This document shows, one piece after another, positions 2,643 through 14,672 of a DNA stretch of 14,672 nucleotides; the stretch's first letter is position 1, and each line of letters opens with the position of its first letter. The stretch lies in the IMG/VR virus record IMGVR_UViG_3300021166_000052, positions 261,424-276,095 of that record. One strand, 5' to 3'. The translations under genes and the position numbers were made by a program. Origin of the DNA: a virus. Lineage: Duplodnaviria > Heunggongvirae > Uroviricota > Caudoviricetes. The notes beneath the pieces were generated by a model. The model made no database searches and was not told the DNA's origin. It saw nothing but the letters and a program-made list of their open reading frames with translations.

Positions 2643-3065
2643 ATGGATCGTAAAAAATTTGTCTGTAATATCATTATACCGCATGAACATTTTGTTGGGG
2701 CCGATAAAATGCAGGTGTTTGATCGTTGCTTGGAAATGGTAATGGTGTATCGTCGCCATATGCTCAAATCGGCCTTATCATATGTGTTGGATCTTGAAAT
2801 TTCAGATGATGATTTGAATAATGTTGTCATCTCTGGTTTTAAAAATTTACTCAATGATAATAAAGTAATTTATAATCGTGAATGTGATGCGGTATACATC
2901 GAAGACACTCATATTATAACATTTTATGAGCCTATTCAAAATGATGTCCGGTTAATGGAAAATATATTATCAATTGACCTTTACTATTCATCGGATATGG
3001 ATTATATTGATTCGATTAATGATCAATATATCCCTAAAGAAAATGCTGAACAATATTATAATTGA
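2643..3065 (+). CDS. Hypothetical protein (140 aa)
   Basis: GGAGG at 2630-2634 favours ATG 2643 over the TTG 2628 used in the track. Confidence 0.8.
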   Translation: MDRKKFVCNIIIPHEHFVGADKMQVFDRCLEMVMVYRRHMLKSALSYVLDLEISDDDLNNVVISGFKNLLNDNKVIYNRECDAVYIEDTHIITFYEPIQNDVRLMENILSIDLYYSSDMDYIDSINDQYIPKENAEQYYN

Positions 3066-3253
3066 TGATGATACGTTACTATAAAAGCCTTTTTATATTA
3101 TTCATGATACTACCATATTTAATGAGTTGTACCCCCCGTGATGCGTCTGAAACGTGTATTAAGGGGGTGGTGTATCATCGGAGCCATAGACATTTAGCGG
3201 TTGCGTTTAAACCCGATGGCTCCATAAATACCTGTAATCCTAACTATAAATAA
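3065..3253 (+). CDS. Putative small lipoprotein
   Basis: TGATG overlap; basic N-terminus, hydrophobic stretch, lipobox-like LMSC; two further Cys (CIKGVVY...DGSINTC). Confidence 0.65.
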   Translation: MMIRYYKSLFILFMILPYLMSCTPRDASETCIKGVVYHRSHRHLAVAFKPDGSINTCNPNYK

Positions 3254-3261
3254 ATAATATT

Positions 3262-8420: not shown

Positions 8421-8939
8421 ATGACTATACAATTTGGAACCAACTGTTCCGATCAAAAAAAATTTGGCGATGAATATTTTTGTCATCATGTAAAAAGTGG
8501 AGTATTAGGGTCCACTATTTGTAAATTTGAACATTGCCCGATTTGTATTATTTCAGATACATTCGAACATAATATTAAGTTATATAATGAAATATATCTT
8601 AAATTAGATACTTATGTATGGAGAATATTTAGTCGATATGTTAATGAATTTGAAATAAATTTCAATCGGCCCGATTGGTGGCGAGTAGATGGCCCAGATA
8701 TTCATTTTGAAGGTGAAGATGGGTGTTGTGGGTGTTATGACTCGATGTCATTGGATATTCCTATGCAATTCTTTATCGATACCCAAAAAGCATTTGATGA
8801 ACGCCATGAAGTAATTCGGATCAAAAGAGAAAATGAAATATTGGCAAATAATCGAAAAGCTATGGCCAAATCTCAACAAACTGAACAGAGCGAACGTGAA
8901 TTATACGAAGTGCTCAAGAAAAAATTTGGTGACGTATAA
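8421..8939 (+). CDS. Hypothetical protein; Cys/His-rich N-terminus, charged helical C-terminus (172 aa)
   Basis: TAAGGTG SD; C-x11-CHH-x10-C-x4-CPIC; ends ERELYEVLKKKFG. Confidence 0.85.
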   Translation: MTIQFGTNCSDQKKFGDEYFCHHVKSGVLGSTICKFEHCPICIISDTFEHNIKLYNEIYLKLDTYVWRIFSRYVNEFEINFNRPDWWRVDGPDIHFEGEDGCCGCYDSMSLDIPMQFFIDTQKAFDERHEVIRIKRENEILANNRKAMAKSQQTEQSERELYEVLKKKFGDV

Positions 8940-9590: not shown

Positions 9591-10421
9591 ATGATAGTAA
9601 AACAAGCAGATATTATTATTAAATGGCTCAAGGCTAACGGTTATCACGAAGATAATAACGGTAATTGGTTTAGAGAACCAGACGATCTATCCTTCCATAA
9701 AGTCATGTTTAAACGGTGTGGTAAAACCCCATCAGACAATACATTATGGATGGATGAATGGTTAGAGTTTGAAACATATAGCACTATTAGAATTGGTCAG
9801 CAACATAGAGCGCATATATTTGATCATTTTAATAATAAAGTGTTATGTGGTGTTAATCGATTTCAACATCCCCCATTTAAAATAAATGTCACAGAATTTG
9901 ATATTAAAGAAATGGGTAAAACGTTTTTAGGATATTCTAAATCACGTGGCGGTCCAAATCCAAACAAGTTTACATGTATAAAATGTGAAAACATATTGGA
10001 AAAAATGTTAATAAGTAGTGGAATAAAAAAAGCTAAGAAGAAAAAAGTTATAAATACTAAAATAAAAGGTAATCCAGATTTAGAAATTTATGACGTGGAA
10101 TTTAATGATATAGAAATTAAATTCACTAATGAATTTAGAAAAACTGAGATGGAAACTCTTATTCATAGTTATATTAACAAGACGGAACCATTATATGATC
10201 CAAATACAAAAGAACGAATGACAGAGGCTGGTAGTCTATCTCTAAACGGATTTTGGAAAGCGTTTGATGGTTTACAGTATACGATGTTTAAAGCTAAAAC
10301 AAGAACTACTACATGGTATGTATACTATACAGCCGGAACAAAAGTGCGTGAAGCAATATGTAAAAAACATAATCTTAAATTTAAACTCGATACTAAAACT
10401 CCAACGTTTATGAATATATAA
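9591..10421 (+). CDS. Lys-rich hypothetical protein, possibly multi-domain (276 aa)
   Basis: Long ORF in the track; no family recognised. Confidence 0.85.
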   Translation: MIVKQADIIIKWLKANGYHEDNNGNWFREPDDLSFHKVMFKRCGKTPSDNTLWMDEWLEFETYSTIRIGQQHRAHIFDHFNNKVLCGVNRFQHPPFKINVTEFDIKEMGKTFLGYSKSRGGPNPNKFTCIKCENILEKMLISSGIKKAKKKKVINTKIKGNPDLEIYDVEFNDIEIKFTNEFRKTEMETLIHSYINKTEPLYDPNTKERMTEAGSLSLNGFWKAFDGLQYTMFKAKTRTTTWYVYYTAGTKVREAICKKHNLKFKLDTKTPTFMNI

Positions 10422-10476
10422 ATACTGGTAATACAAACGAAGTAAAAAATAAAAAAATTATAAGGAGTTACTAACA

Positions 10477-10722
10477 ATGCCACCAGCTAGAGCAGCAAAA
10501 TTTATTGTATTAAAAATTGATTGGTCGGGCCGTAATATGTTGGATGAAATGACAGTCAATGTAGATAGAATTGATTACATTAAACGTGGTAATAGGATTA
10601 ATACAACTGAACTATATATCAGTAACCGGTCACATGCGTTTCTCATTGAACAAGATTATGACAGTGTTCAACATGCTATAGATTATGCTCATACTGAGAT
10701 TACTATTTATAAAGAAGATTGA
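10477..10722 (+). CDS. Small beta-rich protein, FlbD-like pattern (81 aa)
   Basis: TAAGGAG SD; MTVNVDRIDYI...TTELYI...AFLIEQ. Confidence 0.75.
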   Translation: MPPARAAKFIVLKIDWSGRNMLDEMTVNVDRIDYIKRGNRINTTELYISNRSHAFLIEQDYDSVQHAIDYAHTEITIYKED

Positions 10723-10823
10723 CCCCAAAACTAAAGGATAATGAAGCAGTAACCTTTCCGACGCGGACAGCCGTCCAGCACCCGCGCTGACAATGCCAAT
10801 ATCGGAGAAAGTACTTCGGGTCA
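10720..10823. ncRNA. Candidate structured RNA / cis-regulatory leader
   Basis: 42 of 70 nt are G+C at 10753-10822; nested stems TGACCC/GGGTCA, CTT-TCCGA/TCGGA-AAG, CGCGG/CCGCG and GGAC/GTCC; no Rfam family recognised. Confidence 0.5.
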
Positions 10824-10838
10824 TCCTATAAATAATGA

Positions 10839-10867
10839 TTGACATAAGTTCTCCTTGGGGATATATT
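10839..10867 (+). promoter_or_regulatory. Sigma70-type promoter embedded in the inverted repeat
   Basis: TTGACA 10839-10844, 17-nt spacer, TATATT 10862-10867. Confidence 0.7.
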
Positions 10868-10898
10868 AAGTATATAACTTTTATCCCCAAGGAGAACT
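10847..10898. repeat. Perfect 17-bp inverted repeat containing the SD of the next gene
   Basis: AGTTCTCCTTGGGGATA 10847-10863 / TATCCCCAAGGAGAACT 10882-10898 with an 18-nt spacer; AAGGAG at 10889-10894; ATG at 10901. Confidence 0.95.
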
Positions 10899-10900
10899 AA

Positions 10901-11308
10901 ATGAATAATTTACCCGAACTGACCGTAGTTTTAAATTCATCTAATGGAATTGAAATACGAGCAAAACTCGAAGAAAATTATAATTGTGTAGAATTTACAT
11001 TAAATAGTAATCCTCAACCAATCTTCATTTCTCCATGGATGCAATTTGAACCCTCTAAAATGGCAGATGAAAGAGCCAGAATCGCCTATGAAATTGTCCA
11101 CCGGGCCACCAACTACCAGAAACTCCTCGAAGAAGTAGACAAATTAAAAAAACAACTCGACAATCAACATGATTACTCTGATAGGCTTGTAAAACAGAAG
11201 TTTGCACTGGTTGATATGTGGAGAGCCGAACGTAAAAAAATGGGATTACCAGATGATTTTAGTGATATAACCGAATGGCCCCCCGAAACAATGAGTGATT
11301 ATGTGTAA
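10901..11308 (+). CDS. Hypothetical protein with coiled-coil segment (135 aa)
   Basis: AAGGAG SD; YQKLLEEVDKLKKQLD heptad-like stretch. Confidence 0.85.
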   Translation: MNNLPELTVVLNSSNGIEIRAKLEENYNCVEFTLNSNPQPIFISPWMQFEPSKMADERARIAYEIVHRATNYQKLLEEVDKLKKQLDNQHDYSDRLVKQKFALVDMWRAERKKMGLPDDFSDITEWPPETMSDYV

Positions 11309-11329
11309 ACAATAAAGGTATATAATGGG

Positions 11330-11548
11330 ATGAATATAAATATAATAACATTACCTAACAAATGGTCAATCATAATCAATGGTGAGCTACATCAAGAAAT
11401 TGAAGGCACTAGACCATCCGAGTTGTTTACCAAAGCGGGTCAAGTGATTGATGAATATTTATATTGGCATACGGTTAGTACCGATTGTGTTGTCATTACC
11501 ATGAATGGTGTAATAACCTGCGATGTAACGACAGTTGTTATAAGTTAA
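11330..11548 (+). CDS. Hypothetical protein (72 aa)
   Basis: AAAGG upstream; ORF track. Confidence 0.7.
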   Translation: MNINIITLPNKWSIIINGELHQEIEGTRPSELFTKAGQVIDEYLYWHTVSTDCVVITMNGVITCDVTTVVIS

Positions 11549-11565
11549 AAATAAAGGATTATATC

Positions 11566-11775
11566 ATGGATTATGTAAAACATTTTAAAAAATGTGAAAA
11601 AACTGGCGTTGATACCTGTCCTATATGTGGTGAAGAATTGGATATGCAATCATCAGACTATCTGAAGCGTGTCGAAGGTGAAGCGGTTGTCTTCTCTGCT
11701 ACCTGTTGTCGATATGATTGGAATGTGATTTGTAAATGTGTGAATGGCAACTATGTATTTGTTAGTATGGCATAA
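11566..11775 (+). CDS. Small Cys-rich Zn-ribbon-like protein (69 aa)
   Basis: AAGGA at 11555-11559 favours ATG 11566; CPICG...TCC...CKC. Confidence 0.75.
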   Translation: MDYVKHFKKCEKTGVDTCPICGEELDMQSSDYLKRVEGEAVVFSATCCRYDWNVICKCVNGNYVFVSMA

Positions 11776-11933
11776 TGTGTAAACATAACGATGATGATTA
11801 CGATTGCCTTGATTGTTGCTTTGAAATGGGCGCGAATGATGCAATTGATGATTTAGCATGTGACCCACCATATAAAAATTTCGATCAATGCGATGCTTAT
11901 CGAGATGGTTGGTTTAGCATGATCGAGGAATAA
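11775..11933 (+). CDS. Acidic Rmf/CrpP-like microprotein (52 aa), below ORF-track cutoff
   Basis: Translated by hand: MCKHNDDDYDCLDCCFEMGANDAIDDLACDPPYKNFDQCDAYRDGWFSMIEE; TAATG coupling; G-x12-PY-x8-Y-x2-GW spacing. Confidence 0.65.
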   Translation: MCKHNDDDYDCLDCCFEMGANDAIDDLACDPPYKNFDQCDAYRDGWFSMIEE

Positions 11934-14499: not shown

Positions 14500-14672
14500 T
14501 GATAAGGAACTGGTAATGTGATTGGAAGAACCTTATTATATAAATGATAGGGTTTGATAAGGAACTGGAATGTAATTGATAAGGTTTGATTATATAAATG
14601 AAAGAACCTTATTATATAAATGATAAGGAACTGGAATGTAATTGATAAGGTTTGATTATATAAATGAAAGAA
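14500..14672. repeat. Modular 66-bp tandem repeat, truncated by the window end
   Basis: 14555-14620 is repeated exactly for 52 nt at 14621-14672; degenerate copy at 14500-14554; TGATAAGG x5 (14500, 14555, 14577, 14621, 14643); TTATATAAATGA x4 (14536, 14590, 14612, 14656). Confidence 0.95.

Follow-up and report, generated by a model that had tools for sequence, protein, structure and literature searches.

A GC-rich island between two small genes of a phage genome departs from its surroundings in composition beyond chance, and both the anomaly and the complementary segments within it are real. Our preferred reading, held at a probability of roughly 0.35, is that the island forms a hairpin in the 3' untranslated region (3'-UTR) of the upstream gene and that this hairpin protects or processes the upstream message. 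The island would in that case be a lineage-specific, transcribed, non-autonomous RNA element.

The window, by which is meant the whole stretch of 14,672 nucleotides that was analysed, makes up the final 14.7 kb of an IMG/VR virus record of 276,095 bp. The 276-kb phage is probably lytic, and no integrase was found. The genes of the window are small, densely packed and all on the plus strand. The "direct terminal repeat" of the record (window 14500-14672 and genome 1-118) is a 118-bp overlap within a 66-bp tandem array, which may have arisen in assembly across a repeat and not be a physical terminal repeat. The following features surround or make up the island.

10422-11329, no strand: segment of about 0.9 kb absent from the related contig L066 (tblastx and alignment)
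10477-10722, plus strand: 81-aa gene with a strong Shine-Dalgarno (SD) sequence and a positive coding score; its TGA stop is part of the island's closing stem
10720-10823, plus strand: full element, a predicted long imperfect hairpin closed by UGACCC/GGGUCA (minimum free energy, MFE, -25.2 kcal/mol, z -1.3)
10748-10815, plus strand: core hairpin with AGUA/UACU, UUUCCGA/UCGGAGA and a weak irregular upper stem (MFE -18.8 kcal/mol, z -2.5)
10753-10822, no strand: GC island, 42/70 G+C
10839-10867, plus strand: sigma-70-like promoter TTGACA-17-TATATT, matching at 11/12 positions, the best-placed match in the window
10847-10898, plus strand: perfect 17-bp hairpin (-30.5 kcal/mol, z -7.0, 0/300 shuffles as good)
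10901-11308, plus strand: 135-aa gene of a promiscuous phage family, with 33 relatives besides itself at 46-87% identity

Composition and setting of the island

The preliminary description had reported 42 G+C among the 70 nucleotides of 10753-10822, in an intergenic gap of a genome of about 30% GC. A recount gives the same 42/70, genome GC is 29.5%, and the placement holds as well, with the TGA stop of the upstream gene at 10720-10722 and the next start codon at 10901. The genome averages 20.7 G+C per 70 nt (sd 5.7). A count of at least 38/70 is reached at only 63 places in 276 kb; about one fifth of these are tRNA or tRNA-like, and most of the others seem to be coding. At 178 nt, the gap 10723-10900 is the largest internal gap of the window. 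Its GC content is 42.7%, and the other gaps of the window have 19.5-30% with the exception of a smaller patch at 3066-3261. Gaps of at least 80 nt, 206 in all as delimited by crude gene calls, were also ranked by their best 60-nt stretch. The island gap is joint highest among them with 37 G+C, a value that is also the 99th percentile of the non-tRNA gaps. Seven gaps reach 36-37 G+C, namely four annotated tRNAs, one tRNA-like gap, one GC-rich unit near 31.6 kb and the island gap. Meyer et al. (2009; PMC2704228) found, in another genome of 29% GC, that most intergenic regions enriched in GC are structured RNAs. The premise that GC peaks often mark structured RNA, from which the preliminary description had started, is borne out there and also here, where the GC-richest gaps are mostly tRNA or tRNA-like.

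The exceptional patch at 3066-3261 is a second GC-enriched gap, probably non-coding if a 63-aa TTG ORF at 3062-3253 is not real. It holds a CCCCCC...GGGGG hairpin and a 9-bp CGGAGCCAU/AUGGCUCCG stem, its fold has a z of -2.8 (0/200 shuffles equally good), and its sequence is unrelated to that of the island.

The genome encodes tRNAs of 41-59% GC, of which ARAGORN detects 22 and RF00005 19. Additional GC-rich patches in the tRNA cluster (G000:C1:5058-5129, 8870-8919 and 10272-10421) contain the T-arm-like GGxTCGAACC without a call by ARAGORN or Rfam, and these may be unusual or intron-bearing tRNAs. One tRNA has a CUA anticodon (G000:C1:112953-113043). When TAG is read as sense, coverage by ORFs of at least 100 aa rises from 74% to 88%, the ORF count changes from 381 to 385 and the longest ORF grows from 1003 to 2547 aa. 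These gains cluster at 110-220 kb, a pattern that reads as a signature of TAG recoding in late genes. The gene calls near the island are the same under TAG=Q.

The island spans the interval from the stop codon of the upstream gene to 15 nt before the near-consensus promoter. The 81-aa gene that precedes it is an orphan. Its sole match among 5.8 billion proteins is itself, and it has no Pfam or PHROG match; its ESM Atlas model has a pLDDT of 0.72, and the fold look-alikes are small phage proteins. An extension of this gene by read-through or frameshifting is rejected, as in-frame TGA, TAA and TAA codons follow, the shifted frames close quickly and TAG=Q has no effect.

On the other side of the island, the promoter spacer coincides with the left arm of the 17-bp hairpin, and the SD sequence AAGGAG of the 135-aa gene lies within the right arm. 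From this arrangement, transcripts started in the hairpin loop would carry a free SD, and in read-through RNA with both arms the SD would not be free. The same TTGACA-17 promoter type also precedes ncRNA-like units at genome 30.6-32 kb. These are two paralogous GC-rich non-coding units outside the window (L050:10780-12200; G000:C1 about 30,580-32,000). Each follows the promoter, an SD and a mini-ORF (MNKIRDGP or LNNLRDGPESNNK, each ending in a stop), and each is closed by an identical canonical hairpin and T-run terminator; "atgaataagattcgagat" occurs three times. They match no Rfam family at E<=1. The island differs from these units, as neither a promoter nor a terminator belonging to it could be found. 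As candidates for new RNA genes or leader-peptide genes the two units surpass the island, and a search for new RNA families in this phage should take up 30.6-32 kb before the island.

Known families, relatives and predicted fold

The preliminary description proposed an undescribed RNA that resembles neither a tRNA nor a riboswitch, and suggested a search of Rfam. No Rfam 15 family matches the window at its gathering score, and over the whole genome Rfam 15 matches only tRNAs. With the island alone at E<=10, the sole match is the archaeal C/D sRNA sR12, at 13.4 bits versus a cut-off of 38. The stated dissimilarity is upheld, in that ARAGORN calls no tRNA at the island, RF00005 is absent even at E<=10 and no riboswitch family is matched. 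A tRNA or tRNA remnant is rejected on the same grounds; the island shows no cloverleaf, though both tools detect the genome's tRNAs.

Several other classes of site were tried and rejected. An intrinsic (Rho-independent) terminator is absent, since the plus strand of the gap has no hairpin followed by a T-run and GGGTCA is followed by TCCTATAAAT; textbook terminators with 6-7 T are present elsewhere in the genome. A box C/D sRNA or TIGR-Tas guide would have to rely on an imperfect C box (UAAUGA versus RUGAUGA) and a score far under the cut-off, in a genome without a Nop domain (PF01798) and at a place without a tandem array. For a 3' element of a diversity-generating retroelement (DGR) target gene, the genome has no reverse transcriptase (RVT_1) and no second copy of 10400-10900. 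An integrase att site finds no tyrosine recombinase (PF00589) in the genome, and 18-mer matches in 185,579 species genomes are all chance. An attC-like cassette site is rejected by inspection, as the closing stem is TGACCC/GGGTCA and not a GTTRRRY core.

Relatives of the island were sought widely. Within the 276-kb genome, BLAST, tblastx and a covariance model (single-sequence, 27 pairs) find only the island itself, and no long complementarity to the rest of the genome was found. Neither the 50,697 phage records nor the 72,556 plasmids yield a match in distant-mode blastn. A 25-mer and a 22-mer sought in IMG/VR, and two 22-mers sought in JGI metagenomes, return nothing; the large collections were searched by exact words, which diverged copies would escape. 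The 18-mer search yields 38 matches, all in GC-rich bacteria and with flanks about 25% identical to the island, as expected by chance. A gapped pattern built from the best-supported stem matches 54 IMG/VR sequences, none of which scores with the covariance model. The island leaves no trace in L066, its only syntenic relative (covariance model, filters off). It is also absent upstream of the homologues of the 135-aa gene in nine distinct contexts, where similarity to the gap is not above that of shuffles. An all-against-all comparison of 15 GC-rich non-coding patches reveals no family. Because no relative was found in any collection searched, there is nothing to compare for covariation. A motif needs recurrence and none was found, so the proposal of a new motif is neither confirmed nor refuted.

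The fold was first drawn by hand, from the five complementary pairs TGACCC/GGGTCA, AGTA/TACT, CTT+TCCGA/TCGGA+AAG, CGCGG/CCGCG and GGAC-AGCC-GTCC, and each of them is found in the sequence where it had been drawn. The multi-stem RNA that was deduced from them is not supported. Its outer stems are probable in the Boltzmann ensemble (0.5-1.0 overall), with pair probabilities of 0.54-1.0 for UGACCC/GGGUCA (P1), 0.52-0.63 for AGUA/UACU (P2) and 0.90-0.96 for UCCGA/UCGGA (P3). The two inner stems, however, are improbable. CGCGG/CCGCG and GGAC/GUCC overlap and compete for G10765-66, and each has a probability of 0.03. RNAfold predicts a single irregular hairpin, the upper half of which is a series of 2-3-bp helices with no junction, and the hand-drawn structures reach -14.1 to -17.8 kcal/mol versus the MFE of -25.2. 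The core at 10748-10815 lies outside the footprint of a ribosome terminating at 10720.

Folding energies were compared with those of dinucleotide shuffles, 300 per element, which the preliminary description had named as a check. Of the 300 shuffles, 2 are equally good for the core (z -2.5) and 38 for the full 104 nt (z -1.3). The minus strand of the island gives z -1.0 to -1.5, and a separate run on 10715-10830 gives -1.99 (plus) and -1.61 (minus). Both strands thus fold equally well or badly and neither is preferred. As a control, the 22 tRNAs of the same genome were put through the same test and range from +0.05 to -3.97 (median -1.7). The island, at -1.3 to -2.5, falls within the range of the phage's own tRNAs, so the energy test neither supports nor refutes the claim of an RNA. 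There is a methodological lesson here, in that a shuffle z-score cannot separate real RNAs from background in this genome, where tRNAs score alike.

A proposed 3'-UTR hairpin and competing explanations

We propose that the island, which lies within an accessory insertion of the early-gene region, serves the orphan 81-aa gene as a structured 3' untranslated tail. Since all genes of the window are on the plus strand, the island would be co-transcribed with the upstream gene unless RNA polymerase stopped. With no canonical terminator in the gap, early transcripts would read through it, and the GC-rich stretch in the read-through RNA is predicted to fold into one long imperfect hairpin with its core at 10748-10815. 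The 17-bp hairpin at 10847-10898 is a plausible target for a double-strand RNase. Once the RNA had been cleaved there, or had decayed from its 3' side, the upstream message would end close to the GC-rich hairpin, which may then shield it from 3'-to-5' exonucleases and so stabilise it. The hairpin would also insulate the upstream message from the next, moron-like unit with its own promoter.

The cis-acting 3'-UTR reading is preferred because the island starts at a stop codon, ends 15 nt before a promoter and has neither promoter nor terminator of its own. The outer stems are robust in the ensemble, and the 17-bp hairpin next to the island departs strongly from random expectation (z -7). A neutral patch of 60% GC should decay in a genome whose gaps have 20-30% GC. 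The GC content of the island is as high as that of the tRNAs, the other gaps have 19.5-30% and the genome drifts to AT, which argues for selection or for recent arrival. Several observations count against the 3'-UTR reading. There is no homologue, and hence no conservation or covariation. The energy of the full element is matched by 13% of shuffles, its upper half consists only of 2-3-bp helices, and the phage genome yielded no RNase III gene. The window's other operon boundaries carry no such island, though the patch at 3066-3261 is also GC-enriched and structured. If the island is a 3' stabilising or processing hairpin, it represents ordinary phage mRNA engineering, of local interest only.

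The strongest rival, only slightly less probable than the 3'-UTR hairpin, is that the island is an inert relic, that is, a short piece of foreign DNA richer in GC (flanking sequence from a donor cassette, a decayed gene or a decayed RNA gene) at a mosaic junction, not yet decayed towards AT and functionless. In favour of a relic, the island lies within an indel of 0.9 kb that shows in comparison with the sole syntenic relative. That relative, L066, is a 16-kb contig of 33.6% GC, and it carries the sole relative (64% identity) of the 276-aa gene two positions upstream. Window 9591-10421 corresponds to L066 6001-6867 (64% aa), window 11330-11548 to L066 6888-7079, just 20 nt after the preceding homologue, and window 11775-11933 to L066 7089-7277. 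The segment missing between them, 10422-11329, contains the orphan 81-aa gene, the island, the promoter with its hairpin and the 135-aa gene. With a single relative, insertion and deletion are not polarised. The island is thus part of an accessory unit of 0.9 kb that can be swapped, in an early region of pronounced mosaicism.

The 135-aa gene also fits a relic, since it is promiscuous and found elsewhere in phages of 44-59% GC. In the nine distinct contexts that were retrieved, the upstream neighbours mostly differ and are unrelated (integrase, a UvrD-helicase-linked gene, RF-1-domain genes, gp32/RecA). Homology between the 135-aa gene and its closest relative begins at the coding sequence. 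In two GC-rich phage contigs (L009:1667-2335 and L064:1173-1634), relatives of the gene come directly after small RF-1/PCRF-domain genes, which are phage-borne release-factor fragments. Uniqueness of the island in the genome and in all collections searched, and a fold that is not above many shuffles, are likewise what a relic would show. Against this, no donor was found. The gap is not above shuffles in comparison with the upstream flanks of the nine homologue contexts, and tblastx of the gap against the phage's own genome and against the relatives' loci gives nothing. A coding relic or antisense gene was rejected, as the 86-aa minus-strand ORF at 10630-10890 has 0 relatives among 1.84 billion protein representatives. 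All 38 of the 18-mer matches are chance, and no tRNA remnant is seen. In the closest relative the 135-aa gene is AT-richer than its surroundings, so transfer was probably outward from the AT-rich lineage and not into it. Moreover, the AT-rich promoter and hairpin stand between the island and the 135-aa gene.

The undescribed RNA of the preliminary description could be a novel small stable RNA, cut from an early polycistronic transcript and acting in trans. Phage tRNAs and the T4 species 1 and 2 RNAs are cut out of longer transcripts in this manner. In size (about 70-105 nt) and GC content the island is like the phage's tRNAs, its fold z lies within their range, no known family is matched and the base rate of RNA among GC-rich gaps is high. 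We nevertheless consider a trans-acting RNA unlikely. The island lacks its own promoter and terminator, both of which the ncRNA-like units at 30.6-32 kb possess; neither a paralogue nor a homologue turned up, the island has no long complementarity elsewhere in the phage genome, and it is predicted to fold as a simple irregular hairpin with no junction. It is similarly doubtful that the island is a singleton of an unsampled class of small structured RNAs, cut from early transcripts and borne on mobile accessory cassettes of AT-rich jumbo phages, for instance a decoy or guide acting in trans against a host function.

The island could also act as DNA. A transcription factor of the phage or its host, controlling the 135-aa gene, would then bind the island's nested inverted repeats, which lie about -60 to -125 relative to the promoter's start point. 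The position directly upstream of the -35 and UP region of the 10839-10867 promoter is suitable, the nested palindromic pairs (TCCGA/TCGGA, CGCGG/CCGCG and GGAC/GTCC) are present, and the strands fold comparably with no strand preference. Yet the half-sites lie at irregular distances, the rest of the genome has no further copies of them, and no neighbour of the island was recognised as a DNA-binding protein. Such a site is quite improbable.

Very improbable indeed is a riboswitch-like or other cis-regulatory leader, in which the island would be a sensor deciding whether the 17-bp hairpin hides the SD of the 135-aa gene: a GC-rich structured part with an SD-sequestering hairpin after it resembles a translational riboswitch, and an SD mimic in the island (GGAGAA) could pair with the hairpin's left arm, but the reading is rejected mainly because the platform hairpin is not switchable (17 perfect pairs at -30.5 kcal/mol, which a 6-bp alternative cannot open) and because a strong promoter stands between "sensor" and "platform," so that its transcripts would be without the sensor; in addition, no riboswitch family is matched and homologues of the 135-aa gene are without such a leader.

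Likeness to known systems

The composition of the island gap invites comparison with the survey of a genome of 29% GC by Meyer et al. (2009; PMC2704228), in which a gap of more than 100 nt with 42.7% GC would be placed with the regions of tmRNA and riboswitches. That survey, however, required metagenomic homologues and covariation before it accepted a candidate, and the island has neither.

The segment that carries the island resembles the phage morons, the definition of which includes extra DNA with its own promoter and terminator (PMC3594210). The 0.9-kb segment is extra DNA relative to a related phage, as the comparison with L066 indicates, and a promoter-like 11/12 site lies at 10839-10867; no terminator was found after 11308. 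The right half of the segment thus appears to bear moron hallmarks, namely extra DNA, its own promoter and a travelling gene, without the terminator. As in morons, the DNA lies between genes that are adjacent in the relative, its GC content is unlike that of its neighbours, and it combines a promoter with a gene that travels among unrelated phages. It differs from them in that no terminator was found, two genes are in the insertion and the indel is unpolarised, and in that the phage is a 276-kb, probably lytic one without an integrase.

The neighbouring element at 10839-10898 is like the SD-hiding hairpins in read-through transcripts of T4 (reviewed in PMC3014915), as a promoter start in the loop would leave the SD free. 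The likeness concerns the adjacent hairpin, and the island would be merely the upstream part of the read-through RNA.

For the island itself, the nearest parallel to the proposed 3'-UTR hairpin lies in the early mRNAs of phage T7. The present case differs from T7 in several respects. T7 has five related sites and there is a single copy here; RNase III was not detected among the genes of the present phage; the hairpin here is known by its predicted geometry; and the island is far GC-richer than its surroundings. In T7, according to work attributed to Dunn and Studier and to Panayotatos and Truong, intercistronic RNase III sites are said to lie in the early mRNAs, and 3' hairpins reportedly stabilise the upstream message. 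The two cases share an irregular hairpin with internal loops between the early genes of a polycistronic transcript.
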